DNA from: a bacterium
GTDB taxonomy: Bacteria; Auribacterota; Auribacteria; Auribacterales; Auribacteraceae
Reading direction: 5' to 3'
Length of the DNA: 34,761 bases
Assembly: GCA_021161885.1 (NCBI GenBank)
Contig: JAGGZS010000023.1
Location: 1-34,761 of the forward strand
In this document: positions 943-27,300 of the stretch, in pieces
Position numbering within the stretch: the stretch's first letter is position 1
Layout of the letters: every line of letters begins with the position of its first letter
Position numbers and translations under genes: made by a program
Notes under the pieces: generated by a model
Seen by the model: only the letters and a program-made list of their open reading frames with translations
What the model was told of the DNA's origin: nothing
The model's database searches: none

Positions 943-1278
943 ATGTCTCAATCTGACAAAATCGTAAAACAAATCAAAAAAGCTACCCGAAGAAAGTTTA
1001 CTGCTGAAGACAAAATACGTATTGTCCTTGAAGGTCTTCGAGGAGAAATCAGCATTTCTCAATTATGTAGACGGGAAAGTATTGCTCCATCAGTATATTA
1101 CAAATGGTCTAAATCCTTTCTTGATGCCGGTAAAAACGGTCTTACCAGAGCAACTGTCCGCAATGCTACCAGCGATGAAGTTCATCATCTAAGATCAGTG
1201 AACAACGACTTGAAACAAGCTGTTGCTAAACTCACTTTAGATATCATAAAGTATAAAAAAAGTCTGGGAATGTGGTAA
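943..1278 (+). CDS. IS3-family transposase OrfA (HTH DNA-binding subunit)
   Basis: The 111-aa product contains RRKFTAEDKIRIVLEGLRGEISISQLCRRESIAPSVYYKWSK, the classic IS3/IS911 OrfA helix-turn-helix, followed by a leucine-zipper-like C-terminus. A GGAG lies upstream of the ATG. Confidence 0.85.
   Translation: MSQSDKIVKQIKKATRRKFTAEDKIRIVLEGLRGEISISQLCRRESIAPSVYYKWSKSFLDAGKNGLTRATVRNATSDEVHHLRSVNNDLKQAVAKLTLDIIKYKKSLGMW
1255..1262 (+). promoter_or_regulatory. A7G run: likely -1 frameshift or transcriptional slippage site joining OrfA to OrfB
   Basis: AAAAAAAG lies in the OrfA/OrfB overlap. The -1 frame opens exactly here: it has TAA at 1254-1256 and then reads KKSGNVVRIKRRY. This is analogous to the A AAA AAG motif of IS3-family elements. 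The phase of the heptamer relative to OrfA is not canonical. Confidence 0.45.
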
Positions 1279-3379: not shown

Positions 3380-6300
3380 TTAAGCTGCTTCATCGAAATG
3401 AGCGCTTTGGTTAATAGCATCTATAACACTGCTGTTGACCGACCTTGCGTTTGCCTCAATCCGCAGGTATTTAGCAAAATTCTGCGTAACCGACATAATT
3501 CCAAGCGATTCAACACGGTGTATGAAATCGCCTAATTTAGGCGGATTGTCTTTATTGATCGCGCGTAATCTGTCGTATACCTGCTTGATAAAATAAAGAT
3601 CAAGCTGCTCCTTAACTTTTTGTTCCAATAATGTGAATTCTGTTCCAGATACAGCCTGATGTGATATAAAATGCATAAAAACAGATGCGACATCTTGTTT
3701 TTCCACTTCTTTAGCCATAAGTTTTTTGAAAAGCAGGTCGCGAATAACCAAATCTTTTGTCCTGAATTTTTGTTCGACTTTCGCTTTAAGTTCCGTATCA
3801 AGCGAAGGCAGGACTTTGGAATAAAAAATATCCGTTAAACTGCTGTATGTAAAAATTTTTCCTTTAATAGCGTCTGCCTGCCGTATAAAATCGTTAAATA
3901 CAGCCATAATATCGCCTATTTTAGAATTACTATCTTTATCGAGTATAATACGGTCGCTAATATCTATTATTTTTATATCATTAGGAACTTTTTTAGACCC
4001 GAATGACCTTAGAATATCTATCATAAACACAGCTTTGCTATTTTCAAGCATTCCCTGCATAACCAATCCTGAATCGACAATTTGGTAACGCAATCCGTTA
4101 TTCTGTGAATACTCGGCAAGTTTTCCGCCGGGTATATCTATCATCTTAACCCTGCCGGCAATATCTGATTCGGAAAGATCGGGATACTCGGTTTTTATTA
4201 ATCCTATAAGCTCGTCAACCGATTTGACTGTAACGATGAAATCAAACAGATTGTTACTTGAATCACCTTCCCTGCGTTCAGTAGTTTTATCAAGTTCAGT
4301 TTTAAAAATGCCTGTATTTTTATCATTTAATGAAATAGCCACAAAAACAGCCTGACGCCCTTCATTTTTACGGTTTTCCATCTTAAATTTCCTGAATGTT
4401 TCTTTTAGCATAAAATTAGCCGGAGACAATTCGCCTAATATCAATTCCTTCGGGAACAAGAACAAATCGGGTTTAGACATTGTTGCCTTAATAACATTTA
4501 CGGATTTACGCAAAAGGCTTTTTGAGATTTCAAAATCAGCCTTATCAGGAACATAGTCGAAGTCGATATCAAGTTCTAACTCGAAAATTTCCCGGAGCTG
4601 TGAGATGATTTCATTAATCTCAACCGGAGATAGCGGACGGGTTTTCTTTATATTGCCCATTTTAATAATACGGTCTATCAAAGGTTTATATCTTTGGTTC
4701 TCTAACCCGTTTAATGTTAAGGTTTCTATTATGTCAGGCAGTTTATTGCCGAAATAATCTCGTAACCGCGCGGCTTTTATATTTAAGTCCGCATCAGTTA
4801 AAGCAGAATTTTCAGGCAATGATTTCAGGTATTCCCTTGCGCCTATATGGATAAGAACTTCTTCCATACCGCCTCTTAATAATGCATCGAAAAACCCCTG
4901 TCCGAGAAAAATCACTTTTTGCCCGCCAATTACGCGCGCGTCTGTAAAATGGTAACCGTTTAATGTTGTACTGATTCCGTAAGAGCCGTCATTAGAAGGT
5001 ATAACCGCTATCTTAGCTTGTTTAATGTAATCAAGCACATTTTGCAGTAATTCAGCGGTTTTCGGATTGTCTTTGTTCAATGTATTGATACGGGTTTGTA
5101 TAGAATTCATACCTATTTCAAGCATTTTCGCTTTTAATCCGCGAGGCACAAGATTTTCCACTCCGCCCGCTTCATCAATTGCCGTATTTATTATTCTGTC
5201 CGTGAATTCCTGAGCGTCAACCGCTGATTTTACAATTTCCTCTTCAGTTCCGCCTATTTGTTTCTGAACAAATTCGCTTACAAAATCCTGAATTGATAAA
5301 AGCACAGCTTTGCTTACCGGTTTCTTATCAGATAGTTTAAACTTTTCGATCACCTTGCTGTACATGCCATTTACAAATGTATCGAACTTAAGGCTATCCG
5401 CATCAAGGTTATATAATAATTGCGACACAGGTAAATCGGAATAAAGCAAAATATAGCTTCGCAGTTTTTCTATGGTAAATGAACTTACCTCTACAGGTCG
5501 CTCAATGTTTCTGTTTTTATCTATAGATTTATAAGTTGCGTTATCTGCGGGAGTTTCCATATTGTCGTCAGCCTCAAGTTCTGTCTTTGAAGTAACCGGC
5601 GCAATCTGATTGGCTATTGTATGATATTTTGCTTCCAGTTGTTGGGCATCTTCAATATTTCCGGATATCCATTTCCTTAATTCACGGGTTAGTTCAGCTC
5701 GTTTAGCATCGGTTAAATCTTGCCATGATTTATCGATAATACCAGCTATATTTAACGCTTTTTTCTGCCACAGGTGCATTTCGACCACTTCATGCATGGC
5801 TAATGTTTTATCATAGGCTTTTTCGGCGATATAGATGCAATTAAGCTCTATTCCTGCATGGGCGCGTTGTACCCCGGTTAAAACCGAAGCGTTCTTAACG
5901 ATATAAACTCTGACAGGGTTGCCGTCGTAAACTATTTCTCCAGACCGGATAAGATTGCCGGATAATACTGCTTTACGAATAGCCTTGTTCACATTGCTGT
6001 GAGAACCGGCTTTTATGCCCACATCAGCTATATTAATATCGTCTTCGTGTTCTCCCACAACGCCTCTCATGGTATTATCGCTTTTTTCTTCCTGTATATA
6101 TTGAGCATGAAAATGTTTCTGCATAAGATGCACTATCTCCGGGTCGATAAGCGACATAGTTATTGAGCCCGGATAAAATTGTTCAAGAATATTAGCGAAA
6201 TTAGTGAACGTATCGGACAACAATCCTTTACCTCTGAGTTTATCTTTATTTTCCCTTCCAAGTGAAAGGTAATTCAAATGTGTATATTTGAGTTCAGGAT

Positions 6301-9300
6301 AGATTGTAAAATCTATGAGGAATAAACCGTAATCCTGCGATAAATTACCGCGTAAAACATTGTAAAGGTTCTTTTTAATATTACCAGCCGTATCAACAAG
6401 CACGCGGAAATCTATTTTATCTTTTTGTTTTTCACTTGTAATAAGAGTAACAACCTGAGCCTCGGGAACATCTTCAAGCTGCGCCTCAACCATAACTTTA
6501 TTTGTCATAAAAGAACTATGTGTTTGAATAACTAAAGCTGTGTTCCCGTTATTAATTTCTGTTAAGGTATTCCACAAATTAGGGGCAATCCATAAAGAAA
6601 CGGGCAGTTTAGTTATGTTCTCCTGTGTTAATTCCTTATTTGCTTGTTCTATTTGTGATGCCGGTTTTTGCGGTTGTTTGGTTTGCATTTTTTTCTGTAT
6701 TTTTTGAGAGGATTTTAATTCTTCCGCAGATATTCCTTCAAGGGTTATCTCACCTTTTTGTTGATTTGTTCCGTCTTTGATGGTGCCTGTCATTTGATTA
6801 TTAAAATCAGATTCATAGGCAGCGTCAAAATATTTAGCCATTAAATGTTTGCTTGACGGATGAAGTATTTCGGCGGTTATTTTACCCGGATAATAATGTT
6901 CAAGAATATTCACAAACCGCTCAAAAGTATTTATCATCAGTTTATTGCCCTGAAGCTGATCGGTATAAACGCGTCCAATACGCATATTGTTGAAATGAAT
7001 CATATCCTCTTTGAAATATTTTCTAAATGCCAGTAAATATTCGAATTCACCATCATAATCTACTCTGCCGCTTATAATCTGTTTTATATTTTTACGCACA
7101 TAACCCGCCTTATCGGCTATAACCCTATGATCTACGTAATCGGAATTAAAATCGCTCATAATAATGACAACCATTTGATCGTCGTCTATTAATGCTAATT
7201 GGTCTGTCAGGTCTTTTCGATTCGCCGCATTGATGCCATGCGCCTGTATAACTACAGGAGGTTTACCGTTATTAATGGCTGAAAAAGCATTCCATAAATC
7301 ATCTGCAATCCAAGCCGCAGCAGGCAATTGGTCAATAGTTTCATCTTTAATTTCATATTTATCCGTTTGCTTTTGAGATATGTCAGTTTCATCGAAACCC
7401 GATTGTAAATTAATGTATACGTTTTTATTTACAAGAAATTGTTTTAAAGAATCGGCTATGTTCTCAAGTTCAGTTTTATGCCAAGTTCCTATTCTTAATA
7501 TTTTGTCTTTACCTTTATTTTGATCGATTATATCCGTTAAATCTGCGTAAGCGCTGGATAGAAAATCTAAACCGTCTACCTTATCTGATGCGAGAATTCC
7601 CTCAAAAAGCATTTTTACTGTAAAAATGTCGGTATCAAGAGTCGATGACAATTGCGGATAATTATTTTTAACTATGCCGGATACTACATTATTGAAATAC
7701 CGCGCCATAAACATTAATAAATCGGAATATTTATCTGTTGATGATACGTATCCCAAGTCGACAATAGCCGCATTATAACCTGCATCTTTATCACCGGAAA
7801 CCATTATATTGCTGGGGTTTCTGTCATAATAAAGTTTAATGAAATTGAAATTTTTATGTACTTGATACAGTGCTCCGACTCCGACTTTTAAAATATCAGA
7901 TAACCGTTTCATATATTCACTGGCTTTTTCATTTGGTTTCATCATTAACTGTCCTGAAATTATTTTGCCGTCCCTATTTTCAACCAACATAGGTTCGCCT
8001 GGCAAAACAGATTCTGTATACACATCAAAAACAGGTTCAGCAGCAATTTCCCCGGGTTTAAACGCTCGTGAAGCAACCAGCGGCACAAGATCGGTTTTTC
8101 CTTTTCCCCTTTTTTCTCCATAAGCAAGAATAAGGTTAATATTTTCTATATCGAATTTTGAATCCGGACGCCGTTTGGATTTTAAAATAAACTGCATCGG
8201 CTGGTGTTCGCCCTTAACAAAAACAGTTATTTTATGGGCATATTTAAAATAACCTCTGCCTATATAATCGATATGAATGGATTCAATCATATCTTCGGTT
8301 ATATCTTTACGGTCAAACAATACGAATAATGTTCTTCGCAAAAGATTAGTTTCCTTTAAAGACTTTGTTATTTCCTCTGTAATTTTCGGACCGTTATTGA
8401 CAAGTCCGTCCTCATTATAAAAATCGGGAAAGGTACCGTTATATTTTTCAGAATAAGTTACAGTCCACTGCATACGTTGTTTTTGTTTGGTATCCGCCAC
8501 CTTTGGCATAAACTTTTTTATAACCCGCCATCCAGCTGTTGTTTGTTCTATGCCGGCGTTATTATCAAGCATATTGTCTAACATTGTGTAGAGTTTATCG
8601 TTAAAAGATTTTGCCTTTTCCGCGATACGTTTATCTTTAGCATTGTCTATCCACCATGACAACTCCCGTCTTGCTGTTATAAAATCGGTATTGCGAGAAT
8701 ATGGAGTATCAACTAAACTTTCAAACAAATTAATAATCTCTTCAGCGTTTGGAGCGTAATCAAAAGCATATTCATGCCGGAACTGATCTAACTGGAATAA
8801 AATAAGTTTTAAATGTTCCGACTCATCACGCGATCTGAGCAGGCCGCCTATTTCTAATCCCATCGACTTAGCGAGTTTGGAAATCAACTCATCATAAGGC
8901 AATGTAATATCCATATCGTCAAGTATTCCTATCATTTTCGCAGGCAAAGTTCCGTTATCAATAAATGTTAATACATCAATTAAAAAGGCTTTATTGGAAA
9001 ACGCCGGTTTGATTTGTTCAATAAAATTTTCAAGCGGCATTTTCGCTTTCTCCAGCCCGGACAGAAGCTGTTGCAAACTTTCCCTGAACTGTACGCTTTC
9101 CCATACCTTTAATTCTGATTCATCTTTAGGGGACAACCCTGCTTCATGGAGCAGTTCATGACGCAGGAACATTTTGAATAATAACTCGATTACCACCGGA
9201 TTTTTTATTTGAAAAATAGCTTTGTTTATTCCGATAAAATTATCGTCCAGATGATTTTCAGCTATGCGAAACGATTTAGTCAGCATAACAAAATCTATTT

Positions 9301-12300
9301 CACTTCCCTGAAGATTTTTAAGTATTTGTTCCTCGCCTGTTAAAATATCTTTAATCCAAGTTTCTATCATTTCGTTGGTAACAGGCGCTTCATGTTCAGA
9401 ATCGGCAAAATCATCATCGATTTTCATAGTGAATTCATAAGGTGTTCCGTTTTCAGTGATCAAAATAGGTACCTTGGCATAAGAGATATTCGCGAGTATC
9501 TCATTTAAACCTGTATAATTATTTTTGTGGAGCTGAAAATCATCACAATGATACTCAGGCGCCGGTATCCCGCCCATAAAAAAGCCTATTCCTGATAAAA
9601 TTTTAGCTAAAGGACCGTCCAGCTTCTTCACAGCCGCTTCTACATCGGGAGTTAATTCAGGATATAAACCGGCATATAATTTTAAAGTCGGTATATCTTT
9701 CCTGTTACCCAGTTCACCAAGAGCCTTTACTGTTTCCCGTTTAATGGAAATCCGATCCGCATAAAGCAGATGCCTTAAAATAGGAGCTGATTTTTTATCG
9801 CCTTTTTCGAGCATCATCGAAGGTATCTCTATCAGTACGGCCCTGTCATCGGCGGTTAAATCACGGCGGTCAAGTTTTCTTAATATATCTGCGAGAACCC
9901 CGATATAATTATCGCCGGCTATATCAATCATGGCTTTTAGAGCGGCTTGTTTCACATAAAACGAATAAGGGCTGTTTTTATCTACTATTGAATTGCCAAG
10001 TGTATTCATAGCATCGGAATATTTGTTCCTGCCCATAGCCAAAGCGGCTTGTTCTTTTTCGATATTATCGCCGGCTATATATAACCTTAAAAGCTCTTCA
10101 TTAAAAATTTTTTTCTTTAATGTTTCAACAGCTATTGTACTTTGAAAACCTTTATTTTTGTAGACGAGATGAAGTAAATGGCGAACCGCGCTTTTATCGC
10201 CTTTTCTTCCAAGCAAAATTGCCGAAGCGTCAACTATGCCTGCTTCCTGATTATTTAATCCCAGCCTTAAATACGCTATAAGATCATCGCCGTACTGCTC
10301 GAGAATATCTATCAAGTCATTAAATTCCAATGAATTTTCCGCTGTTGCCATTAGGTTCAGACTGTTCCATATATTATCAGACAATTTAAGCTGATTGGAG
10401 CGGTCAATACCGCGGGATTTAAGAAAATCGCCCGCCGCTTTTCTTACATCAGGATTCGGGTGTATAAGCAGATTATCAGCATCAACGTTCAAATCGGCTT
10501 TTAATTTATCCAAAACTTTTATTGCCAATACGACCGAAGTATCATCGGATTGTTGTGAAATGATTTTCCGCATAAACGGGATAACGGATTTATCGGCAAG
10601 TTTAAACACTGTTTTTTGAGCTTGCAGAGCTACTTTCTCGGAGCGGTCATTTATCATAGCGAACACATCCGCCATTGCGTCCGCATTACCGGTTTGGCCA
10701 ATAACATACAAAACTCCTTCACGGATGTTGGGGTTTTCCTTGTTCAGCGCGGTAATCAATAACGGTAACGCCTTGTCTTTAACAGCGGTTAAAGTATCTA
10801 CGGCAACGCTTCTATCTATAAGATTAAAACCAGCGAGACGGTTTATATTTTTTCTTATATCCGATTGCGTAACAGAATTTTTGTCTACAATATTTTCAAG
10901 CGCCCTATTCTCAATGGAGTACCCTATCGCGTTCAGTTTCAGCATTTCGTTGAGTTCCTTGAACACACTGGCTGTAAAATTTTCAGAAAAACCCCTGTTT
11001 GACATTAACGAGACAAACGCTTTCTGGTTAAATGAAGTGCCTGAACGCAAAGCCTGTTTAAGGGCAGGAGCGAAAACAGCGAGAAAATCGGTTACAGGAG
11101 TATAGCTGTATTTACCGTTAATTACGGCAGGAACATTTGTTTTTAGGGTAACTTCCAAATCAGCGGCTATGTGCATAAAGTTCAAGACCGTATCATACGA
11201 TTTTTTCTGGTCAAGAATAAATGTTTGGATTGCTTCCGCTTCTTCATGTGATAACCCCGCAAGATGAAACGCCTCATGTAGAACTACTACGGATTTTTCT
11301 TTATCAGTAAGAAGATTAGCGAATTTACCGCTCATATAAATATTATTCCTATCCTGATAATGTCCGTAATGAGCCGCAGCATATCTATTTCCTACCCAGA
11401 ACAAGATATTATCTGCCGGCAGGGAATAAATTTGCGTATTGTCAAGCGCTGTTGAAATATTGTCGATAAATTTATTAAAATCCGATTCAGAGTTTATTCC
11501 CTTTTCCTCAAACATTTTGTTAAGAAGGGGATTAACTGATAACTCGGCATAATTAAGTTCGGATAATAACGATTTTGCCTGTTTCCTCTCTTCCTTAAAA
11601 GGTAAAGGCTGAGGTTTTTTATCAAATAATTTTTTTATCATCTGGTTAAATGCGTCATGGCGGTGTTTGTCTGTTCCGCAAATATTTCCGAAAGACAGAT
11701 TATCTGCCTGATTTAAAGCCGCTAAGCGAACATCAGGCAGCTCTTTCCTGCGGGACACGGATAATTTTAAGTCTTTATTAGATAAAGCGTCATTAAGCGC
11801 AGTAAGAAACTCTTTAGCGGTCTTATACCGTTCGGTCTTATTTACCGCTAAAGATTGTTTCAAAATTTTTGTTATTTCAGTTCCCAACATAGATTCCATA
11901 AAATCGAAATCAAAATCACCTGATTGTATTAAGTCTGCCGTAAATTTGGTTTCGTCGAAATTGCGTAATTGGTCTGTTGATAAAAGTTGAAGTTTGGCGG
12001 ATACCGGATGGTGTCCTGTTAAAAGTTCGGCGAAAATAATGCCTAAGATAAACACATCGTTCTGCTCACTTAAAATTTCATACATCGTTTGTACTACTTG
12101 CCGATTTATCGTATCACGCAATTTATTGTTAATTTGTGTAGGCACTGATACATCAAACGGTTTAAGCTCATCGGCTATTTGCGGCATAACCACATTTATA
12201 AGAGTATTATAGGACGTGCTATATTTAAGTTCGGATTCCGTAAAGACGGATTCAAAAATAATTTTAATATTTTTTAATTGAGCGATTATATCATCAGCGG

Positions 12301-15300
12301 TTTTTAACGAACTGATTTTTCTTAATAAATCCTGCACCTTATTTTGCGCATTAGCCGCGTCAATCTTTTCAGGTGAAGAATAAAAAATATTTTTAGCGGT
12401 TAGCGATGGTTCTGAAAAAGGGCTGCTCTGACCGATTTTTAACGCTTGCGATAATCCTGTAAGAACTAAGGTATTGTCTGATCCTATAAACATATCAAAC
12501 GGGGTGATATCGTTTAAAACAATTTTTTTATCGTACATACCGATGAGCTGTTCTAAAACAGATTGCGCAAACGATAAAAGCGTTTCCGGCGAACTGATAT
12601 TTTTTGTTTTTTGCTCCATTGTTAGTGGATTATCTAATTTAATTGATAGAAAAGGGTTTTCTTCAAGCAGGTTATCGCCTGTAATTGCAGTTTGCTCGGG
12701 ATACATAGTTTTTGTTAAACTCATTTCCCGCTGCCAATCTTTAAATAAATTTTCAAGCTGTGTTCTTGAGAATCCGTCAAAGAGAGGAAGTTTAATCATT
12801 TTTATAAGAACAGTATTGCCGTTTTTATCCTGTCCTCTAAAAACAATGCTTTTATTATTTTCCCTGACAACATTTTCAATAGAATAATCTCCGGCTTTAC
12901 CGCTTAAACGGATGATATTTTCTTTTACTATGGCAGAAGAATATTTAGCGTAAAAAGTAACATTGTTAATCAATTTCTCTGCGACTTTTTTGTGCATTAA
13001 ATTCAGGTTTGTCGCTTTATCTACTTGTTTTATCATAGATGTTTCATTGCGGATTATTGTTTGGAAATATTTTTCAAGTTTCTGGAAATCTTCTAAAGTT
13101 CGGGCATTGTTAATTCTTGAAATAAAATCGGTCTTGATACGGTCACTGGCTAATCCGGGTTGTCTGTTTCCTGTGCGGTTAAAAACAGATTCAAGGGCAA
13201 GTGACGCCATATGCGGAAGCTCGTAAGCGGATTCGTCAATCTGCGACCTTAACATCTGGGCGAAAACCGTTGTGTTTGATGTTATATATTCAACAGGCAG
13301 GTAAATATGTATTTCACCGTTTCTTTTATTTGCTAATGAATCTACCCCTATATTTTGTAAATCGTTTATGCTTGCCAAATGTAAAATTACTGTGCCTGAA
13401 GCGGCAGTCGGGCTAATCTTTACTGTTTTGATACCCTCAGGCGAATGATTTATCTGTTCAATAATATTGCCAAGCATATCCGCAAGATCGGACATATAGG
13501 TATCTGACAAAATAGTCATCATACTTATTTGTTCGCTTATCTGTTTGCCGTCTTGTTTAATCCATCCGCTTAAAGTTGATATATAACTTTTTAAGCTGTT
13601 CGCCATCTTTGGAGTATATGAATAATTGTCCCAAGAGGTAGTAATAGAATTTAATGTTTCCGGATCAATCAGCGGAGCTTGCGCCGTCCATTGCGGTTCT
13701 TTTTTTAATAAACCTGAAAGAGAAGCCTTAACTTGCACCTCAATTTTATGTTCTTTATCTGTTTGGATATCCGATAAAACAACAGTTTTTTCACCAGAGT
13801 AAGCAGTACCGGTTTTCTGCTGAACTTTTTGCCATCCTTTACCTTCAGTCCACAACCATCCTTTAAGGTAATTTGCTGCGAGAATTTTTCTGACGGCAGC
13901 ACGATTGTAACTAAAAATAGGGTTAGATGAGTACTTCGGAGTATCATCATTGCTTGTAGCGAAGGCTATTATCTCAAGAATATTTGTTAAATAAATGTCT
14001 TCGGTTTTACCGTTTTTAATAAGATTTATCCTGATGTCATCAGGAGTCGAAAAATATATTCCTCCAACAATGAGTGCCCAGAACAACTGCTTATTATTAT
14101 CTATTGCCCATTGCAAAAATTGAAAAGGAATTTTTTCGATCCGGTATCCGTCTTTTGTTTCACCAAGATCGAAAATTTGATAATTTTCAGGCGTTTGTTT
14201 GTTATATTCATTTATTGCGTTTTTAAGTTTTTTTGACGGGTAAAAATTCATATTAACATTTACGGAAAAACGAATCGTACGTAGAGAATCTTTTATAGAA
14301 TAAGTATTACAGCAAGCGAACAGGATTCTCATTATATCGTCTGCCGGCATAATTTTTTCAAGATCGTTTATTTTATCCGGTTCAAGCACTGCCTGCTCCA
14401 TTAAGGTCAATAACGCATGATGACCTATGTACTCATGAATAAAAGTTTTACGCGGGGTTTTATCGGATACGAAAATCTCTCCGTGACGGCGCCATCCTTT
14501 GCGGACTTTATTTATCCCTTTAATCCGGCTTTTAAATATCGGTTTAGCCGATAGCGCTATCTCGTTGCCCCAGTTCGGTAAAGAATTCACTATTTCATCT
14601 GGGATATCCTGCAGTTCGGATAAGATAAGATTAAGATTATTAAGCAGATAAAACCGTTGGTCTTCGGTTTGGAGTTCGTTTGCGTCAAGGAAAATCGATG
14701 CGTTAATTCCTTTTTTATGCAGTTGTTGTATCTGTTTTATGATGCCTTCTTTTTTCAATAAATTGAAATCAAGCGAATGAAGCATACCGTCGGCTTGTTT
14801 TTTATCTTTTGCATCATGTCCTGTGCCGATAGTATCGTTGAACTCGCTGTAAAGCCAAATAAGGGTTTTTATATCTTCGATAATGTCTGTCAAGTCAACA
14901 TCTAAAGTTTCGTTTAATTGCGTTAATTCATCTTTCAGGTTTTCATATTGCAAAGCAGCATCATCTTTAACGCGTCCGATAGCGTCTGTGCGTGAAGTCA
15001 TTGCTTTATATAAATCATAATTAATAAAAATAGCTGACGATATTTTGTCCGCTGATTCCCTAACATAACGTTCTGTTAATGTCCTAATTCGAGCGTTTCT
15101 TTTTTCAATAGGAATATCAGTGTTATTTTTAATATCAGACAGAAGGGTTTTAAGTGATACTGTTTCGTTATTATAATTTATTTTCGCATCACGGCTTTTC
15201 TGCAGATGTTTCCAAAAGGCGTCAACCTTAGCAAAATCAATAATATCTTCCCCAAACTCAACCGGGTCAATAACTCCGATATCTTTTTGGTGGGCAGAAA

Positions 15301-18300
15301 ACATTTCTGGATTTTCAGTTTTATTTACGACAGCGGGAGAGGTTTTATAAAGATCAACCCATGCCCTGAACCACAGGTTTTTGGGGTTTTTAAACAGTTT
15401 CCTTAAAAGGTTATTCCATATGACTGCTTCCTGACTTTTTTTTGCTATAACCCCTCGCGCCCAATCCCTGAATTCATGTTCAAGAACCGTTTTTAATACT
15501 TTCATGCCGAAAACACGGTCGTTACCGCTCATGTTATCTACATATTCCAAGGTAGATGTGTTCAGATAAATTGTTTTTCTGCTCAAACCGGCATGAGCTA
15601 ACGCATCGCCTCGGAAAAAAACACCTTGTTCATCAACAAGCAAAGTCAAGAAAAAATCTTTAAGATAATCTTTATATTCCGAAGACCTTAAAATCAATAA
15701 AGCTGTTTTAAGAGCTTTTTGCAGTTTTACCCTGTATTGCGGGTTATTGAGTTTAGTTTCAAAATTTTTTCTTGCCGTATTAGATATTTTTAGATTAGCT
15801 TGTAACTTAACGGCTAACTGGGCTGTTGATAAATCTTTATCAAACAAAGTATAGACGAGTTCATCTATATTTGAATAATCCAAAGCGATACTTTTAAGGT
15901 CAATACGGATTGCGTCGCCGTTTTCTATGAGTTTAGATATTTCATTATCCACATTTGCCCTAATTTTCCCGCGGGCTAAACTTTGATTATTACGATTGTT
16001 GTCTGTTTCATCCTGTACTTGCGCTGTCTGCGCCATAATTTCAGGCAATATATTCCATAAAGCGGTAATTGCTCCGATTGAGAACCCAGCCATCGTAAAA
16101 ACTAAATTAATTATGGTTGACACAGGTTCAGCAGTGTCAATCATATATTGAGAAGCCATAGTCGAGAGAAAAGCTCCCAAGAAACCGAAAAATGTTCTTT
16201 GAGTTAATAAATCTGGGTTTGATTTTAGTTGCCTTATTACTCCTGCAACTAACAGTCTTGACGGTTCAACGTATTTATTTTTAAATTCTGCCCATAATTG
16301 AGGAAACACAGGCATAGTAATTGGTCTTGCCAATACCGGTTTAAGCGCGTTATAAGGGCGAATAAGAAGGAAATCACCAACTGTAATAAAATATTCAAAA
16401 AATGACGCGATAAGTGAAGAAAATAAAAAATTAACAGCCATAACAGGCGCCATTAATACGGTTTGAACTTTCTCATATCGACTAGCATGCTTGCCGAATA
16501 TAAAAATTGGAAGCGCAAATATCGCATAACCTAAAACTAATGCCCCAGATATCATCAGCAGCATATCAACTAAATGAAATATCGGTATCATTTCAATGGT
16601 CATAAACCCGAACATAGCAAATACAGGCACAAGCGCTGTATACATAATTGTTGTTATAATAGCCGGTATACGCATGTCCTTAGGCATTTTTGCGCCTTTA
16701 CGCATTAGCTGAAACATTCCGCCCGACCATCGTCTAGCCTGAATCCATTTTCCTTTCAATGTTTCGGGCATATCTGTTATAACCCTGAAATCTCTACGTC
16801 CGAAAAACTTAAATTTAGAATTTTTATTTTGCCTCAGCAAACCGGATAATTCGGCATCGTCAGTTTCAAAAATACCCGAATGCTTTTGTAATGCCCTAAC
16901 TAGATAAGGCACCAAATAACCACCGCCTCCCCCTGGAACCGACATAGTAAAAAAGGTATTTAACGACCTTAACCATGCAAGATAAAGAAAATTTATTTTT
17001 TTAAGAAGCGAGGTGCCTTTAGGCAAAGTGCCGAACGAGGTAGATAAAGGCAGTATATTGGCTATGATACGGTTCCCGTCTTTTTCAACATGACCTAACA
17101 TATTGGCGGCGTCTTTGAGCGCGCCTGATATATCTGTGCCTTCAATGTAAGAATCGCCGTCCATAATAAAAAGTTTTTCAGGCAATTTTTTTATTTTTCT
17201 ATGTTCAGCAAGTGAATATAACCCTAACACCGCATCTCGAATAGCGCCTGTTCTATGCCCGTTTTTATCACGTAAAATCATATTAAAATCATAAACCTGT
17301 TCACCGGTTTCCGGATTAATATAGTTTTCCCATGAAGCAAGTTCGTTTCGTGTTATGCTTTCAAGAGCTTGTAACCCTTGGCGTTCATCATCGGTTATAT
17401 CTGCTTTTGCAAGCCGTAAGGCGATATCTTGCAATTTCGCGTTGAGCAGTTTAATATTATATTTCCTGTTAAAGCGTTTGAGTAAATCTTGTGTTCCGTC
17501 GGTTGAGGCGTCATCAACTATAACGAGTTTATCAAGATATTTTCCTTCATACGCTTTTTTGAGAATATTTTCCATAAGGTCAGGATCATCTCGGGACAGA
17601 AGGTTAAATACCGGAGTAACTATAAAAAAATCCGATGCGAATTCTAAATCTTTTAATTGATCGGCATATTGGATTTCGTCAAGAGGAAGCGGCCGGAATT
17701 CTTCCAAACTGCTAACAGGTATTTTTGAGGAAAACCGGCGTAAATCTATATTATATTTTTCGCCGTATTTATCTGTAAAATCGGCAAGATTTTCTATAAC
17801 AACTTGTTGTTCCTTACCAAATATTTTTTTAAGGTTTGTCTTGTTTAAAGCTGCGGCTCTGCTTAATAACGCCAAAACTTTACCTGCAGATAAAACCCCC
17901 ATCTCATCAATTAATTGTGAAGATATAACAAACTCCGGCAACCCTTTAGGCTGTATTTTGAAATATTCTTTTATTTGTCCGTCAACTTTATGCAGTTCCC
18001 TTATTTCTTTCGGACGATTTTGAAGTTCCGCCCAAAATTTTTCTACCTGTTTGAACGATATTGGTTTTCCTTGAAAATAAACAGGCTCAACTTTCCCTAT
18101 ATCCTCCGCGTGTCCGCCCCGCAGATAATCGCGGTACTCGTGTTCGTAAACCGCTTGCAGAATACGTTTTGAGTATGCCTGATCTTCAGGCTCCATTTCG
18201 GCGATATACATCAGGGTAGACAAATTCAGGTAAAAACTTTTATTTTCAGCACCCACATGCGAAAGGGCTTGCGCGTTATAAAATTCACCTTCCCAATCAA

Positions 18301-21300
18301 GCAGAACGGTTAATGAAAAATCGGAAATTTTGTCGATTATTTTTGAAGACCGTAAAACATCAAACCCGAGAACCAACGATTTTCTCAGCCGTTCTTTGCT
18401 CATCGGGTCAGAGAGCTGTTTTTTTAATTCTTCTTGGGCAGCAGCCGGCAAATCCGTAAATAATCGTTGGAGATTAACTGATGTTTCTTCTGGCGATCCC
18501 TCAAAAAGCGGATTTATTATATCTTCCGATACATTATTGTTCAAGCTATCAAGGGGTACTCTTACCGCTTTGCCGGATAAAATATGTTCTCTTATTATTT
18601 TATTAATATCCTCAACAGATTTTCGCTGAAGGCTTTTTTCTGAACGCACAGTTTGGGGACTTTTTAAAAATTTTTGATCGCCATTAACGGCTTTTTGTGC
18701 GCGGGCAAGTTGTTCTGCCATTACAATATCTATTGTTTGCGACGTTAACTGCGCGTAAGACTCAATAAGGTCTAACGGGAACAAAGAAGCAAACGTCGTT
18801 CCAACCGCTTCAGAATCAAATTTATTTATAAAGGAATTGATATTTTTGCCGTAAGAATTTTTAACGGCTTCGTCAAGATAACTGAGCATATCAAGAGCCA
18901 GCTCAGAATGTTTGTTTAATAAATCTGAAATAATATTTAATGAATCTGTTTTGTCTTTTATATCACGTTCGTTACGTATAGTGGAATTCATATAAGTAGA
19001 AGATACAAGCACATCAACAGCCTCAGCGAAACTATCAAAGCCGGCAGGCATTTGCGAACTGAGTTTAAACTGAAGAGCAAGTTCTTTGTTATTATATAGT
19101 TTTACATCGGACTTGACAATTTGAGATAGAGAATATCCTGTTGAATCTTTAAATAACCGATTAAAAGATGTAAGCGTTAAAGGAATATCCATCTGCTGAG
19201 ATGTTTCAGCAACAATTTCCTCAAGAAAGGCTGTCTGAGCCTTACCGGAAACAGGGGTTCTTAGTAAAGAAAACATAAAATCGACTATTTGGCTTGCTGT
19301 AGATTTATCTAAAAGCTGTTTGCCGGTAAATGACTGCGATAACCGCAAAGCCAACATAGATATTCTATCTATTTCAGTCTGATTAATATACTGCTGGTTA
19401 TTTTTTCGTTTAAAAAACTGTTTTGCCTGCGGATTATTACGCAGTAATGTTTGCGGATATAAACCTGTAATATCCATAACAAACTGTTCAAAATCAGAAT
19501 ATGCTTTATTTGATTTTAATAAAATTGTATTAAGCGCAAGACTGCGCGCCTGATTGTCGGGAAGGTTAGAAAATATTTTCATAAAACTGTTTACAAACCT
19601 AATGGGCGTAACATAAATCTGACCGTTTAAAGCATATTCGATTATTTTAATATCTGTATCTATATTAAACGATTTCAATGGGCCATCCAACTGATTTGAA
19701 ACTTTTTCCGTATATAACCCTACAGCCCAAGCGACAGCCTCATCGCCTAATTCACCGTTAATAGTCTTTAGCGTAGCAGGGGTAAATTTTTTATTTTGGT
19801 CTGTAATCCAGCCATTCATTACTGACAACAGGGTATTCCAAGGATTATCTTTATTGTTCTCAACATATTCCAGTTCAGCTTCGCTAAGAGGCAATCCATT
19901 GGCTATTAGATTAAGATTTTTTATGGTTCTGCGCTGTTCTGCGGTTATATCTTCAGATTGAGAGATAAGATCGTTAAGATCGTTTTCGGAGTAAATTGTC
20001 CGGTCGCGTAAAATTGAACGGATAATCTGTTCGAAATCCATTTTCTTCACTATCTGTTTAACATTGCGCTGTGAAAGAGTATCGTTAAGTTTATTCCATA
20101 ACCGCATATCAGCGAACTGCGCATACCGTTCGTCTTGTCCGAGTTTATTCATCAAACTTTTTAACGCTGAGGCGATTGCTTTACCCCGTTCGGTTTTGTT
20201 AGGAAATTTTTCCGTTACAAAATCAATATATTTTTGCCTGAAATTTTCAGTAATATTTTTAAAAGGAACTTTAAGTATTCCGACTGAGAACTCATTGATT
20301 ATTCCGAATACCTCATTTTGAATTTCCTCAAAATCAGAGGTTGTGCTGTCTTTTATTTTAGATTTAAGTTTATCAACCACACTATCGGCAACTTCGGGCG
20401 ATACCAGTTCCGCTACAAGAAGAAGCAGGGGTAACTGATACATCATTTTAGGTGACTTGTGCATCAGGTATTTAAAAAAATTGGTTTTTGCGTACATATG
20501 GTCTATAAGTTCAAGATTAAATATTGAGTCGAGATCATCAAACAAGCTGTTTTTTTCGTCTTCCGTTAAAGTTTCAGTAAGTTCCAACTTAGCGACTATT
20601 GCCATTAAAGGCGCGAAAACAGCTGATGCTTCAGCGGAATAAACATTATATAGAAGCGGACTTTTTAGGGCGTCATCAACAAAAAGTTTCATTTCATGAG
20701 CTTTTGAGATTTGCACAAGTAAAGCGGCAAGTTTTTCTACTGGAATATCTTTTATTTGATTAAGCAGCACATCAGCGACCGGATTTTCCTCTTTATTTAT
20801 GTTAAGAAGTTTAAACATTCTTTTAACGATATTTATTTCTATTTCATTATTTTCTATATAAATAATATGCGCACCTTGCGGATAACCAGGAAAAGGATAT
20901 GTTTTATCGCTCAGGATATACTGGGCGGGAGCAATATTATAAAACGGATCCTTAATTCTTTTCCCTCTTAAGATTAAAACAGTCTCCTGTTTGCCGTTAA
21001 TGGTTACCTTATGTTCTTCAACGTTATCGTTATAGAAATCAAAAATGTATTCGCCGTTATAAACAATACCTATATGAAAAAAGAAATCAGCATTTATTTT
21101 TGTTCGGAACTCCATAAACATTTCGTTTCCTGCTAACCGGTCGTTAGCGTCTCCGCTTCGCATTAACCTGCCTATTTCAAGCGCATTGGCCATGAAATTT
21201 TCAATATGCTCCGCAGCTTTTTTAAATCCTAAACTTTGGATTTTATCAGTTAAATTTTTAAGGTTTTTAATCGCCTCTGGATCAAGTTCCTGTTTGTTTT

Positions 21301-24300
21301 CAACAAGCGCGTCTATAGATTTAGCCAGCTTATCGCCCATAGATATTCTTGTTGTCTCATCAACAATATCTAATACAGGCAGCTCATTTTCTTGCTGAAC
21401 AGGTAAACTGTTCATATGCTTTACAATATTTTCTAACGGATTAGATGAGTTGAGAATATCTTTTAAGGTTTCATTATCGGATTGACGCTGAACCATATTC
21501 AAGCCTCTTAGGATAGCATCTATCGCAAGCCGTTGGTTATTGCGCGCAATACGCGAGGGGACTTGCCCTTTTAAAGGCAAATATCCGACAAGAGCGTTTC
21601 TCATAAAAACAGCGGTTCCTTGAAAAGCTGAATTCACATCAGATTCAGCGGGCAACCGACTGACAACGGTTTTAAAACTTCCTTCAGTATCGCTTTTTAA
21701 AGTTCGGCCTATAACAGCTTCATATTTATCTATATTATTTATAAGAATGCGTTCGCGGGCTAATTCGCTCGGACTCCATTGGTAATCGGAACTGTCTTTT
21801 GTTGTCCTGAATTTAACCGCAAAATCAATAACATCGCCCAATTGTGCCTTTAAATTAGGATATTTTGATGATAATGAAGGATTTTCTATTAAAACACGGG
21901 CGATTTGTACAACCTTGTCCAATCGGGCGCGCTTTATGTTGAATTCAGATATATGCCTGAGCAATGCTTGGGTATCTGTTTCAGCCGGTTTTTTCGATTC
22001 ATCCATAGAAGAAAAAACTATCGGTTTAATTTGCTGAAAACTATTGGACTTTTTTGCCTGAAAAATTTTCAGATAATTATCGTTAGAAACAATTCCTACA
22101 CGATACAGTAAATCAATAATTGAAAAGAAATGTTTATAATTGGATTCATTAATTTCGGTTTGTTTAAAATAATCTCGTATTTTAAATTCAGCTCCTATTT
22201 CCCGATTGAGAAGGGATACCACCCTTAACTCTTTAGTCAGACTTTGAACAGGCACGGAAGATAACCCCGCCATTTGGTATAGCGCGTATTCATTGCGTAT
22301 AAATTCCGATCCCAAACCGCCAACTTGCTGTAACTGCTCGGAAAATGACAAGTTGCTCTGGGATATGCCTTCACGGCTTATGGTTTTCTTAAACGTAAAC
22401 GCCAAGTTCTCAAAGGTAGTTCCATAAGCTATTGCCGGTATGTTAGAGCGTAAATTAGCTAAGGTATCGGCGTTCAATGATATATTAAAAGAGCCGTCGT
22501 CTAAATTTGATACTGTTTTTATAAGGATAATATCTTTATCCGTTAATCCTTGCTGAGAAGCGGCTCGTTCAATAATTAGGTTAATTTTGTCGGCATTTCC
22601 CAAACCGTGCCTGAAATCATATTCAATGTTAATTACAGTATAAGGTTTTTTGTTATTCATTGCTAATAAAGCGTTATTTAATCGTTCGCCTACAAACGAC
22701 TGGGCGGGCAACTGTTGTAAAATATTTTGTGTATCACTTATATCAAACGTAATATTTGTAAAATCGCCGGAAACAAAGCTGGTCAGGTTATCTATCAGTC
22801 GGGATATATCGTTTTTCTCCATTTGGGCAAGATAAGGAACTGCAGCAGGATGAGCCGGATCGTTCACGACGGATTTAAGTATATCCGTAAGAACTGCTAA
22901 TCCCGCTTGATTAGAACTTTGCTCCAGTTTATTAAAATACGCTTCACTAAAAAGAGGCTGTATATTTTTCGGTATAGTTACCCCCTGATTTTTTAACTGT
23001 AAAAATTGAGCCGCAATATCTTTAAAATTATGGACTTCAGCAAACTTGATTTCTGTAGATACTATGCCTTGCGATTGTTCACGGCTAAGATTGATATCAG
23101 CATATAGTTTAGCAAGTTTTTCGGCGGTCTCAACAGGATACGCAGGTTTTTCAGTAGTATTTTCTTGTTGGTTATTTGTTTTATAGCTGTCTATATAATC
23201 GGTAAGTTTTTTTTCAAAAACAATAAGTTCTTCAAGCGTCCTTTGGTAACCGCCTATTTTTTTCACTATCTGATAGCTATGAATTTCTTTACGGGACTGG
23301 ATAAATCGTTGCAGACTGTTTCTGGTTTGCTCAAGAACTTTTATGCCCGTTACCGGATCGGACTGGATAATACCGTCAAAAATAGTTTCCGGCAAATAAG
23401 TCTCTATATAAATATTTTTCATTTCAGGATTTAACGAGTTTAATACACCTGATTTTAAAACCATATCTATATACAAAACAATATCAAAAAAATCTGTGGT
23501 TTTCTCTATGGCGGTAACATTGGCTAACCCAGCTTCATACTTATTATTCTCATTCATTCGAATCATTATGCCCGATGGATTAACAACAGGGATATATTCA
23601 AGCATAGATAGTTCAGCCTGCCTGTATAACACACCTGATGCCAAAGAGATAATATTGCTTAACCTTTCGGAATATTCCTGTTCGGTTTCCGCGCCAAGCA
23701 TATGAACCATATCTTCTGTAGATTCTTGCGAGATAAGCCGTACTAACGGCTGACCCTGTAAATATGATTCTATAAAAAAGTTATAGTCTGCTTGAGTATT
23801 CCCGTCAAATTCATTTACAATACCTGCGAACACAGGGCTTATCGCTTCCTGCCCAGCTTGCTCGCCAAGAACAAAAGGCTCAAGATTTTTTATCAATAAA
23901 CCCATGTCGCCTTTCTTATGCTGATTGAGCACAAACCGGTAAGGCTCAGGCTGTCCTTCTATAATTACGCTGACAAGATGGGCATATTTTAATGCGCCTT
24001 TTTGTAAATAATCAATATGAATATTTTTTATAGATGAAGCCGGCACATCAGTAAGCCCATATATGGCAAAAAGCATTTGCTTAACCAGATTTGTATTTTT
24101 TAGGATATTTTCTATTTCACTTAAAATTTCCGTTGCCGGTTTTTCGGCTGAAACATCCATATCTTTTGATATGGTATTATATATATCAGCATGGGATATG
24201 TGCCAATTTCCCCTAATTTTCGCGTCATTTTTCTGTTCAAGCAAGTTATCCAACTTAGAATATAATCGGGCAAAATTAGACCATGCGGTTTTGCGCAGCT

Positions 24301-27300
24301 TATTGTTTTTTGAGTTGGTTACCCACCACAAAAGCTCTTTTTTTACAGCATTAAATTCATTGGATTGAGAAAATTCAATATCCGTTAATGTCTTTAATAA
24401 TCCGTTAATTGCCATTAAATCGGCAGATGTCAGCTTCTCAAAATTTTTAAAATTATCTAATGACGATACCTTTGACCTGATAACAGGCATAACAGACTGC
24501 GCTTTTGCTTGCGGCGGATAATGATGGATTAGAACTAACGGTATATTTTCCTGTTCAGCCCGTTTTCTGGCTTTATAAAAATTTGAGTTCGGATCGTTAA
24601 ACGGCGATAACGAGTCGCTGATATCAAGATTTGTATTCGGATCGGTTACCATAACAGCTATTCCTTTTATCGCTCCTTCCGCTAAAACTTCATTAACCGG
24701 CATATCTGTAAAAGGGTTAGGCTTAATTTTTATTTCACCGTTATCTACTTTTTTATTAAACTCAATTCTTTTCGCCCGTTTTTCTTTATTCCCTTTCGCC
24801 TCGGCGATATAATCTCTCAACATTCTTAATCTGGCGTTATCTTTTGCCCGTTCGACAGTAAAGCGGTTCATAAAATCGGTTAAATAATTTTTTAATCTTA
24901 TTGGAATTTGCGCGGATATTCGGTCTTCAGCCGACATATACACATAATACTGTTCATATTCCCCGAGCATTTCCAGCACATCTTTATATCCGTGTTTTTC
25001 AAGCAACGGATTTCGTATCTCATTAATTATGCTGTCCATACGAGCCTGATAAGTTAGCGATGACACATCCTCGCTATGCACATTTAATCTCGACGGCTGT
25101 TCCGCTTCTGAAGCAATGCTGAACCGGTCTATGGTTACAGGAAACATTTCGTCGATTAACCAGCTTACCTGTCCGTTTTTAATTGTATCCGTCTTAAAAT
25201 ATCCATGATACCCTGCGGTCTCTAATGACGCGCGAACTGTGCTGTTTTTCGCGTTAAAAACGGAAAACATATTCACGCCCACATCAGATTTATATTCAAG
25301 GCTGAAATACGGATTATTCAATTCAGGATATATGTTGATAACCTGAAAATTTCTATTTATATCAGAAGCAAGAGTATAAATCGGCAAAGCGGAAGTTACG
25401 TTAACATAATTTTTAGCCGCAACATCGTGCCGTTTATCAAAAGACAAATTTATGCCGGCTGCTGCTGCTGTCTCAAACAATTGTTTATCAGCATCTATCC
25501 AATACAATCCTGCTGGATCAGCGTTATCGAGCAAGACGCCGAGCAAAGTATCCAACCGGCGCTGCCGTTCAAATGGGACAGGCAATGCGTTGATAATCGT
25601 TTTACGCTGTTGTGTCGATAATCCGCTTGAAGCAAGAACGGCAGAGATTATAAAATCGAATTTTTTATTATAATCAGCAATATTTCCTTCGGTTTTCAGA
25701 TTGGTTAACTGGTCGGACAACAGCAAGATATATCCTATCAATTCATCAGGCACTTTTATATTTATAGAGCCGATACTTATTACCCCTTTATTATTTTTAA
25801 TTTGTTCAAGGAAAGAATCTATCTGAATATTTACTGCTGTTCCCGCTAATTTTTTGCTGCGTATTTCACGCAGTACAGGCAGTTCAGCGAGTCCCCATTC
25901 ATTTTTAACTAAATTTTCCAATCTCAAATACAGCTCATCAGCCGGCTGCCCGTTTAAATTATCAAAAATACTGCTGTATAATTTATTAAGCAAATGAATA
26001 TCTATATCTGAAATGGAACGGGTAAACTTTTCGGAAACTAATTTTGATATAACAATATTCCTTAATTCGCCCGATTTAGTGCTATTGAGCATATCCGCTA
26101 ACTGTTTTATCTGACCAAAAATATCCTGATTAATAGATTGTTTCTGAATAATAGAATTCATAATAGAATTAACAAGATTATCTGCTTTTGCTTCAAATTT
26201 TGATTGTATAACAGGTAAATTAGTAAAATGTTCACTGGCAAAATCTTTTATTTGATTACGCAAATTTTTATAATCATTGATTTTAAACAGCAGCCCGTCG
26301 GTTTGCACATCTGTTTTCTTGGTACCTGTATCGGAGTCAATTAACAGCGAATCAAGTTCAGATAAAGATTGTTTTATAAAATTCAAACCATCCGCTTCAT
26401 TGATTATGGTATTTAAAATTAAAATTAATGTATTTTCATCGCCAATACTTTTCCTTACATCAATAGGCATCGGGGCGATTACATTATTTTCGACAACCTG
26501 TTGTAATAACAATAAAAGATCAAACGATTTATTAATGTCAGCCCGTTGATTTCCCGCGTTATCAGCATTAATAACAGCAGTTACGCCGCCGGACTCATCT
26601 AATTTTAAAACAATTCCCTGCGGCTCAATATTTTTAAAACTCCATTTATTGTCTATATTTGCAGACATCCTGTATAAAGCGGATACAACCGCAGGCAATA
26701 CTTTACGTACACGAACGCGATAATGCGCTGCAGTCTCATCAGGACGAATGGATACAAACCCCGATTGTCCGTTCACCGCGTTAGAACCAACTAAAGGTAT
26801 TCCTTTTATAACCGATTCCCCAGCGAACTTAAATGCTCCACTGGCTGCGCCTTTATTAATTCCTTCAAAAAATACGCCCTGCACCACTGCGGGTTGGGTT
26901 GCGTTTTTTCCTGCAATATCCATTATTTCTTTATACAAAATAGTTTTCATAGATTCGTTAAAAACCCCTTTTTGGATTCCCTCATCTACGAAAACTTTTA
27001 ATGCCTCTAAGTGATTTAATTTATCCGTTTGCGATAATTGAGTATTTTTAAGGGCTTGAAGATGGTTGCCGATATCCCGTAAAATGTCTAAATTTTTATT
27101 TCTGGATTGTTTTTCGGATTCAGGGATAATTTTGTTCAATCCGATAACGTCGTCATCTAACAAATAAACTAATCTTTGCCCCATAATCAACCCGTTTATT
27201 CCGGGGATATTGGCGATTTGCGCGAAGATTGTTTCACAAGCGGATGGGCTTTGATCTGCTGACAATTCAGGCTGAATCAATCCGGCAAGGTAAGGATAAG

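Follow-up and report, generated by a model that had tools for sequence, protein, structure and literature searches.

What is a membrane-embedded glycosyltransferase of family 2 (GT2) doing halfway along a protein of 9,700 amino acids (aa)? The question is raised by a stretch of 34,761 nucleotides, here called the window (positions 1 to 34,761 of contig JAGGZS010000023.1, assembly GCA_021161885.1), which comes from an uncultivated bacterium of the Auribacterota, placed in the PVC group by the NCBI taxonomy, and which carries one giant gene on its minus strand. The answer proposed below is that the GT2 domain, the transmembrane (TM) helices behind it and the copies of an orphan domain, Z, on either side form a cassette, in which a known enzyme class is met in a new, conserved and repeatable architecture with a new partner domain.

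3380..32482, minus strand: giant gene, a single stop-free frame of 29.1 kb for 9,700 aa, complete at both ends

The ATG of this gene is preceded, 8 nt upstream, by an AAGGAG Shine-Dalgarno sequence. By coordinate mapping, the part at issue (window positions 15200-18607) corresponds to aa 4626-5761, and the claim of a preliminary description of this DNA that the unit sits deep inside one polypeptide is thereby borne out: there is a single open reading frame (ORF) of 9,700 aa, with the unit at its centre. An assembly or ORF artefact was considered as well and is ruled out by colinear homologous stop-free stretches of at least 6,300 aa on five other contigs of metagenome-assembled genomes (MAGs). 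The catalytic domain and its motifs lie as follows.

16700..17695, minus strand: GT2 catalytic domain (GT-A) up to the QxxRW helix, aa 4930-5261, from profiles, HMMER, AlphaFold2 and Foldseek
17495..17518, minus strand: VDDASTDG, aa 4989-4996, the first Asp motif (nucleotide binding), from sequence and conservation
17150..17164, minus strand: MDGDS, aa 5107-5111, the DxD motif, from sequence and conservation
16856..16867, minus strand: ETDD, aa 5206-5209, TED-like, its last Asp the presumed catalytic base, from sequence and conservation
16727..16741, minus strand: QARRW, aa 5248-5252, the QxxRW motif in an amphipathic helix, from sequence and AlphaFold2

The four motifs, which the preliminary description had placed here in this order, are indeed found in the sequence, each of them once, between aa 4989 and 5252; the succession of Asp, DxD, (T)ED base and QxxRW that marks processive GT2 synthases is thus present in the window domain. 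Among nine aligned copies of the unit, which are 36-68% identical and include tandem copies of one protein, DDAS, DGDS, GGGG.Y, E.DD.ELS and Q.RRW.G are invariant, at a mean column identity of 47%. When stand-alone relatives are compared as well, D62, S64 and D66 of the first Asp motif remain invariant, as do D179 of the DxD motif (D181 is kept in at least 90%) and Q319, W323 and G326 around QxxRW; at the TED position the stand-alone proteins read FETGD, with T-G-D where the window has T-D-D, and the last Asp is again invariant.

These relatives came from a phmmer search with aa 4600-5799 against 1.84 billion representative sequences, which returned 33 matches, among them giant homologues with 40-68% identity and stand-alone GT2 proteins of 370-490 aa, the latter from E=2.9e-10. 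All of the stand-alone relatives exceed the Pfam gathering thresholds (GA) for Glycos_transf_2, Glyco_trans_2_3 and Glyco_tranf_2_3, their best NCBIfam family is PgaC_IcaA with NodC second, and they have the signatures PVFN, GYLDK..V[DN]DASTD, KKEGAI/HRTGAI, FET[GD]D and QRRRW.xG in common with the window. Eight of the nine unit copies match Glyco_trans_2_3 (best E=1.3e-8) and PgaC_IcaA (best E=3.6e-8). The GT2 homology of the window domain is secure despite scores of its own that stay below the profile cut-offs, because phmmer ties the window to proteins that pass the GA and because its sister copies reach E=1.3e-8. Of the profiles that the preliminary description had proposed running, Chitin_synth_2 and Cellulose_synt give no match to the window GT2 domain at E<=1, and the Pfam GT2 families give weak matches below cut-off. 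Chance co-occurrence of the motifs is ruled out by the HMMER E-values together with the invariance across copies.

The fold was examined in an AlphaFold2 model of the GT2 and TM parts, built on the 9-sequence alignment. It contains a GT-A core of alternating strands and helices, with a predicted local distance difference test (pLDDT) score of 77-94 over the first 200 residues; the DGD motif follows the strand at residues 174-177, as is expected of a GT-A fold with its DxD after beta-4, and QARRW falls inside a helix (core residues 313-332). Against the PDB, the top Foldseek match is the hyaluronan synthase (HAS) of a Chlorella virus (E=3.9e-5, probability 1.0), followed by GtrB and ArnC (probability 1.0, E=5e-4 to 2e-3), BcsA (0.99) and CesA (0.89-0.96); the structures matched include HAS (7SP7, 8SNE and 9YQ4), BcsA (9FNN) and plant CesA. 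A link to GT2, a GT-A core and helices behind QxxRW, on which the preliminary description had staked its reading, were thus all found, the helices by hydropathy scales.

The model also accounts for an insertion that the preliminary description had noticed between the first and second Asp motifs, and which is real, though at about 54-55 aa a little shorter than it had reported.

17285..17446, minus strand: family-specific insertion of about 54 aa, aa ~5013-5066, from an alignment gap and an AlphaFold2 hairpin

Stand-alone GT2 relatives align with the window in two blocks that leave out these 54 or so residues, which include AKADITDD...GEQ at aa 5025-5062, and the insertion is missing from one paralogous cassette copy in a homologue. 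In the model it forms a two-helix hairpin (core residues 77-95 and 102-124, with a pLDDT of 92-94 over residues 71-120), situated after the helix that follows the DDAS strand and before the next strand. Alignment and model together point to a genuine, family-specific embellishment of about 55 aa.

Hydrophobic segments were located over all 9,700 aa as 19-aa Kyte-Doolittle windows of at least 1.6, with a crude Hessa-scale sum as the second scale.

16484..16669, minus strand: hydrophobic segments a (aa 5272-5296) and b (aa 5307-5333), probable TM hairpin, from two scales and profile homology
16361..16465, minus strand: hydrophobic segment c (aa 5340-5374), probably an interface or re-entrant element, from invariant columns, a parity argument and the K/R-rich loop after it
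16043..16192, minus strand: segments d' (aa 5431-5449, weak) and e (aa 5454-5480), optional second TM hairpin, from hydropathy

In the whole protein, the Kyte-Doolittle criterion picks out only aa 9-28 and the cluster at 5272-5374 and 5454-5479, and the Hessa-scale sum selects the same segments, namely a, b, c, e and the N-terminus. By both scales, then, hydrophobic helices at aa 5272-5480 directly follow the QxxRW interface helix; the count of about five in the preliminary description was a fair one, corresponding to four strong segments and the weaker d'. The matches to Glyco_trans_2_3 and PgaC_IcaA run on past QARRW into segments a and b, from which it follows that the helices were inherited with the catalytic domain from an ancestral enzyme, and several stand-alone relatives align across the same helices as the window. 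In segment c, columns E408, P417, F423, F432 and E434 are invariant.

The arrangement recurs in 13 cassette copies located by pattern. All of them keep QxRRW within a K/R-rich stretch (22 aa, +5 to +7), which is followed by a hydrophobic block of about 65 aa (a and b), a short loop with a conserved KDxx..EK, a second hydrophobic block of 30-45 aa (c), a K/R-rich loop of 40-50 aa and a tight hydrophobic hairpin (d' and e). Three internal copies (in the loci L002, L003 and L004) are without d' and e, and in these c runs straight into the next Z. The loop charges obey the positive-inside rule for a cytoplasmic GT domain. Since the nine aligned tandem GT2 copies keep all of the catalytic motifs, they should all face the nucleotide-sugar pool, in which case each cassette must cross the membrane an even number of times; for that to hold in both types of cassette, d' and e would both span the membrane and c would span it not at all (or twice). 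We infer that the interface helix comes first, followed by two TM segments, by the interface or re-entrant element and, optionally, by two more TM segments; BcsA and HAS have their helices in this order in their C-terminal half.

On either side of this unit lies a copy of Z.

17993..18652, minus strand: Z1, aa 4611-4830, from the envelope of a Z hidden Markov model (HMM), with motifs ALSHVG, FYLN, EHEYRD and RGGH..DIG
15173..16000, minus strand: Z2, aa 5495-5770, from the Z HMM envelope and alignment, about 15 aa after the last TM helix

The flanking modules had been described as paralogues of each other, and so they are: Z1 and Z2 match by BLASTP at E=7e-32 with 28% identity, and the motifs quoted for them, LRSS (aa 4710 and 5598) and EHE[YF]RD (aa 4780 and 5668), are present in both. 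Z2 has an insert of about 50 aa between RG and H..DIG. No third Z copy was found in the giant protein by self-BLAST with 300-aa chunks. The 20 copies available from the window and its homologues share aLaHxG...ktIYlN, EHE[YF]RD..RGxH..DIG and a C-terminal V..FW; Y142, H172, R175, D185 and I186 are invariant, and at least 90% of the copies keep H133, E171, E173, D176, R179 and H182. The AlphaFold2 model of Z1 is a confident one (pLDDT 90.3, predicted template-modelling score 0.87), and nonetheless Z matches no Pfam family, finds only spurious 26-residue matches among PDB sequences, and has no significant Foldseek match in the PDB (best E=2.8) or BFVD (best E=0.21).

Zincins (selecase, deuterolysin, IrrE/SprT-like proteins and matrix metalloproteinases) recur among these non-significant Foldseek matches. 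As in zincins, Z has a beta-sheet followed by a long helix with H-E-x-x-[ligand], and its third His comes 10 residues after the first, comparable to HExxHxxGxxH of the metzincins; unlike zincins, it has HExxD in place of HExxH, some copies have a 50-aa insert before the third His, and the Foldseek E-values are at least 0.2. HExxH itself is absent from Z, the motif being HE[YF]RD with RGxH at +10 (the E-value with selecase and deuterolysin is 2.8), and we would call the conserved H...EHExRD..RGxH..DIG motif weakly zincin-like.

The giant protein has HE sites elsewhere. HEAFH occurs at aa 7069 (window position approx. 11275) and HELLH at aa 7775 (approx. 9160), with looser variants HEALE at aa ~1068 (approx. 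29280), HEYIGH at aa ~6130 (approx. 14090) and HEVVEMH at aa ~8897 (approx. 5790); some of these are preceded by the 'AHxG...IY' strand motif that Z also has, and they may represent multiple zincin-like modules. Kinship of Z with the HExxH modules of the same protein (aa ~1068, 7069 and 7775) was considered and found no support, as hhalign relates them over a 16-23-residue 'AHxG..IY' strand only, at a probability of 5-11%.

A few further large proteins (P0006, P0007, P0008, P0019 and P0022) have Z but no GT2, and Pfam finds no informative partner domains in the Z-only P0007, P0008, P0019 and P0022. One of them, P0008 (NCBI MHA1290424.1, 721 aa), carries the label of a Candidatus Thorarchaeota MAG, which could reflect either bin contamination or a wider distribution of Z.

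A pattern scan of the GTDB representative genomes for the cassette found seven loci, in MAGs labelled Candidatus Auribacterota, Ca. Auribacter fodinae or unnamed bacteria. Six of the seven (L002-L007, with full 10-kb flanks, on five contigs) have the cassette within a stop-free stretch of at least 6,300 aa; the seventh, L008, is a contig fragment of 2.7 kb. The cassette always takes the form (Z-GT2-TM)n-Z, with n from 1 to 3: n is 1 in the window, in the homologue P0002 and in two separate cassettes of one ORF of JACKPL010000001, 2 in L002, L003 and L005, and 3 in L004. The preliminary description had spoken of a unit bracketed by two modules; Z copies do stand on both sides, and the window is better described as the n=1 case of this series. 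To judge from the genomes scanned, the cassette is confined to giant proteins of Candidatus Auribacterota. These giants are colinear over thousands of residues (P0002, for example, is 60% identical to the window protein over window aa 1626-6407), and the cassette is better conserved than its surroundings, with 40-58% identity vs. 31-37% for the flanks. More distant GT2 modules are found inside other metagenomic proteins of 1,000-7,600 aa, most of them with a hydrophobic segment no more than about 100 residues behind.

In L006 and L007 (JACKPL010000001.1, 1645-35246), one giant ORF contains two Z-GT2-TM-Z cassettes that lie about 12 kb apart rather than in tandem; cassettes can therefore be dispersed within one protein.

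Among named families, the best for the window, for eight of the nine unit copies and for all of the stand-alone bridging relatives is PgaC/IcaA. Like the window domain, PgaC/IcaA (TIGR03937) and NodC (TIGR04242) are inverting enzymes of GT2, in which C-terminal TM helices come immediately behind the set of D, DxD, TED-type base and Q(R)xRW(x)xG. The cassette family scores 23-88 bits against them, whereas the equivalog cut-offs are 422-550; the window also differs in having ETDD/ETGD rather than TED, in lacking an N-terminal TM pair, in its extra 54-aa helical hairpin and in the position of the GT2 domain, which lies 4,950 aa deep in a protein of 9,700 aa with Z on both sides. By both score and gene context it falls outside the PgaC/IcaA equivalog. 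With HAS, BcsA and CesA the window shares the order of the motifs and, apparently, that of the C-terminal helices, and Z2 follows the last TM segment in the position that PilZ occupies in BcsA; it differs from these synthases in having no N-terminal TM helices, PilZ, FxVTxK gating loop or SWGTR motif. The window unit is thus distantly homologous to PgaC/IcaA, NodC, BcsA and HAS, and is a member of none of those families.

Giant proteins with GT domains, HEAT_2 repeats, signal peptides and TM helices have been described from Omnitrophota as 'Archaeovorins' (West-Roberts et al. 2023, 10.1101/2023.11.21.568195), with GTs that are mainly GT5 and GT1 (10.1101/2023.11.21.568195; 10.64898/2026.06.07.730766). 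Like the window protein, the Archaeovorins are very long, mostly dark to Pfam, membrane-anchored and from uncultivated bacteria. The window protein differs from them in its phylum, Auribacterota, in its length of 9.7k aa rather than more than 30k aa, in its membrane-embedded GT2 and in having one internal TM cluster rather than numerous TM regions, and Pfam finds in it no SecA-DEAD, C39 or dockerin domain. In the giant-protein literature compared here we did not find the (Z-GT2-TM)n-Z cassette described, and a term search of a paper on Auribacterota genomics (PMC9324843) gave no mention of giant proteins or glycosyltransferases.

The only significant Pfam family in the 9,700 aa is HEAT_2 (E=1e-17; aa ~7218-7290, window approx. 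10610-10830); GT2 and a few others appear weakly, below threshold. Among the latter are the C-lobe of a protein kinase (E=4e-6, under the Pfam cut-off; aa ~6805-6890, window approx. 11810-12070) and others such as THP2 and Linocin_M18. The N-terminal part, aa 2-542, is homologous to the N-terminus of P0006, and the C-terminal 740 or so residues (aa 8959-9700) align with the ends of homologous ORFs in L005 and L006.

Several parts of the giant protein are paralogous to each other: aa 8306-8550 and 8559-8789; 985-1123 and 8815-8953; 1183-1337, 2702-2854 and 7915-8100; and 2739-2995 and 7963-8249. These internal modules match at E-values down to 1e-38 and with identities of up to 45%, and none has a Pfam match. 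As far as sequence comparison can tell, the giant protein is assembled from duplicated orphan modules.

32390..32482, minus strand: Sec-signal-like N-terminus, aa 1-31, from hydropathy and sequence (K/R-rich, hydrophobic at aa 9-28, AYA|DN)

The N-terminal letters of the giant protein read MLFKPKSKLFMR-LCALILMEAMLF-SNIAYA|DN, and the N-terminus of P0006 is likewise hydrophobic.

With this in hand, we consider it reasonably probable, and by no means certain, that the cassette works as a synthase-type GT2, active, inverting and embedded in the membrane, which extends a beta-linked glycan or glycolipid with Z as an accessory. The GT domain and both Z modules would face the cytoplasm, with the QxxRW interface helix, the TM hairpin a/b, a non-spanning c and the optional hairpin d'/e mirroring the C-terminal half of BcsA and HAS. 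The enzyme would lengthen a beta-linked glycan (or glycolipid) at the membrane with sugar taken from a UDP-sugar, and the product would probably be passed through or along the enzyme's own helices. Z would sit next to the membrane as an accessory domain, probably with a metal or catalytic site (H, HExxD, H, D), and would regulate, process or modify the synthase or its product; the preliminary description had likewise guessed at a regulator or product-modifying domain. A bolder extension of this idea, which we rate as distinctly doubtful, is that the giants of Auribacterota are 'synthase-array polyproteins', in which one to three active synthase-translocase cassettes each have a metal-dependent Z (HExxD...H) that either cuts the polyprotein where cassettes meet or gates or modifies the nascent polymer.

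A number of observations weigh against the synthase reading. The scores of the window domain itself are low: 20.4-21.8 bits for Pfam Glycos_transf_2 (GA 23.3; E=2e-4 to 5e-4) and 15-18.6 bits for Glyco_trans_2_3 (GA 27), both below cut-off, and for its top NCBIfam match, PgaC_IcaA (TIGR03937), 23.2-23.5 bits (E=3e-5) against an equivalog cut-off of 422.3. A profile of the GT2-TM family finds nothing among PDB sequences at E<=1, while the window sequence on its own finds N-terminal GT2 matches only, at E of at least 0.22. BcsA, HAS and PgaC use helices N-terminal to the GT domain for the pore; there is no hydrophobic segment between aa 31 and 5269 of the giant protein, and a Z module precedes each GT2. 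No PgaA/B/D-, ica- or BcsB-like partner gene is found in the window. From the structure model, which the preliminary description had looked to for a channel over the QxxRW site, come the GT-A core and the matches to HAS and BcsA; its TM half is modelled at a pLDDT below 50, for which reason no channel is demonstrated, and the Foldseek TM-scores are 0.3-0.4 (0.33-0.38). The Sec-like start, with no further hydrophobic segment for 5,240 residues, would leave those first 5,240 aa, GT2 included, outside the cytoplasm and hence on the wrong side of the membrane for a synthase. Of the 'complete processive synthase' of the preliminary description, the GT2 core, the motifs and the TM helices are borne out; processive polymerisation and translocation of a glycan are putative, given the absence of N-terminal TM helices and a PgaC/IcaA match of 23 vs. 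422 bits.

The main rival is a non-processive membrane GT2, one that transfers a single sugar to a lipid (diacylglycerol, a ceramide-like lipid or polyprenyl phosphate) or to a membrane-proximal acceptor, with the helices as anchor and lipid site and with no polymer made; this we regard as a serious alternative, if clearly a less probable one. The non-processive lipid-phosphate transferases GtrB and ArnC nearly match HAS in fold score, the helices lie only C-terminal to the GT domain, and the closest stand-alone relatives carry no annotation and have 1-3 hydrophobic segments in their C-terminal part; around the one whose gene neighbourhood was examined (P0014) there is no polysaccharide operon and there are no polysaccharide-export genes. 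Nor is QxxRW exclusive to exporting polymerases, since ceramide glucosyltransferase has it, and so does NodC, which is non-exporting. However, neither TED nor QxxRW, both of which are invariant here, is present in GtrB, ArnC and DPMS-type enzymes, the best named families are the processive PgaC/IcaA and NodC, and the invariant residues of segment c suggest something more than an anchor. The low family scores, the ETDD in place of TED and the large insertion might also be taken to mean that the GT2 is a catalytically dead relic, retained for its helices as the single internal membrane anchor of a scaffold. We think this very improbable because the catalytic residues are invariant: the motifs are kept in all nine copies and QxRRW in 13 of 13, ET[GD]D is common to the stand-alone relatives with its last Asp invariant, and the cassette is more conserved than its flanks.

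The Sec-like N-terminus prompts yet another reading, in which the giant is exported as an effector that acts on or in another cell, with the GT2-TM part entering the foreign membrane and using the target's UDP-sugars. The analogy is with the predatory or episymbiotic giants of the related Omnitrophota, in which architectures with a signal peptide and TM helices are common and have been linked to predation (10.1101/2023.11.21.568195; 10.64898/2026.06.07.730766). In the window protein the Sec-like sequence stands behind a well-supported start codon and its hydrophobic character is kept in P0006, and there are a kinase-like fragment and HEAT repeats in the C-terminal half. We nevertheless judge this improbable, given that nothing points to a host-associated lifestyle for the organism, that the window holds no secretion-system genes and that the TM helices go back to ordinary stand-alone GT2 enzymes. 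We know of no precedent, moreover, for the export and refolding of a 9,700-aa protein with internal TM hairpins.

The remaining genes of the window encode parts of an IS3 element, an epimerase, a lipid A acyltransferase, an ACT-domain protein and a deformylase, and Rfam and tRNA scans of the window were empty. The IS3-family element (943-2303, plus strand), some 1 kb away from the giant gene's 3' end, is broken up into three ORFs, which may mean that it has decayed or that it depends on a frameshift.

943-1278, plus strand: IS3 ORF with HTH_Tnp_1
1272-1553, plus strand: second helix-turn-helix ORF of the IS3 element
1590-2303, plus strand: IS3 ORF with the rve integrase core, GTG start

The gene for an NAD-dependent epimerase/dehydratase (2439-3344, plus strand, E=2e-19) converges on the giant gene's 3' end, and a link to nucleotide-sugar supply is conceivable. 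On the other side, the lipid A acyltransferase gene (32746-33756, plus strand) overlaps a gene for a protein with two ACT domains (33719-34270) by 38 nt, and the peptide deformylase ORF that follows (34280-34576, plus strand), which has 98 aa against 156 positions of the Pfam model, may be truncated or frameshifted.

Cellulose, chitin, hyaluronan and the poly-N-acetylglucosamine of biofilms are products of membrane-embedded GT2 synthases. Those that have been characterised range in length, to our knowledge, from about 400 to 2,000 aa, and occasionally have a single accessory domain fused to them. The unit described here departs from them in being a mobile cassette within a protein some ten times larger, in tandem in its relatives, without N-terminal pore helices and never without its orphan partner domain, in which a His/Glu/Asp site is conserved. 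The tandem copies constitute a natural constraint on topology that is directly testable. If the unit is active, it would define a minimal synthase core, consisting of the GT domain and two to four C-terminal helices, together with a new accessory domain, and would offer a first biochemical handle on the nearly unannotated giants of an uncultivated PVC-group phylum; should the doubtful idea of synthase-array polyproteins prove true, these giants would be an exopolysaccharide or cell-envelope machine without a described counterpart.

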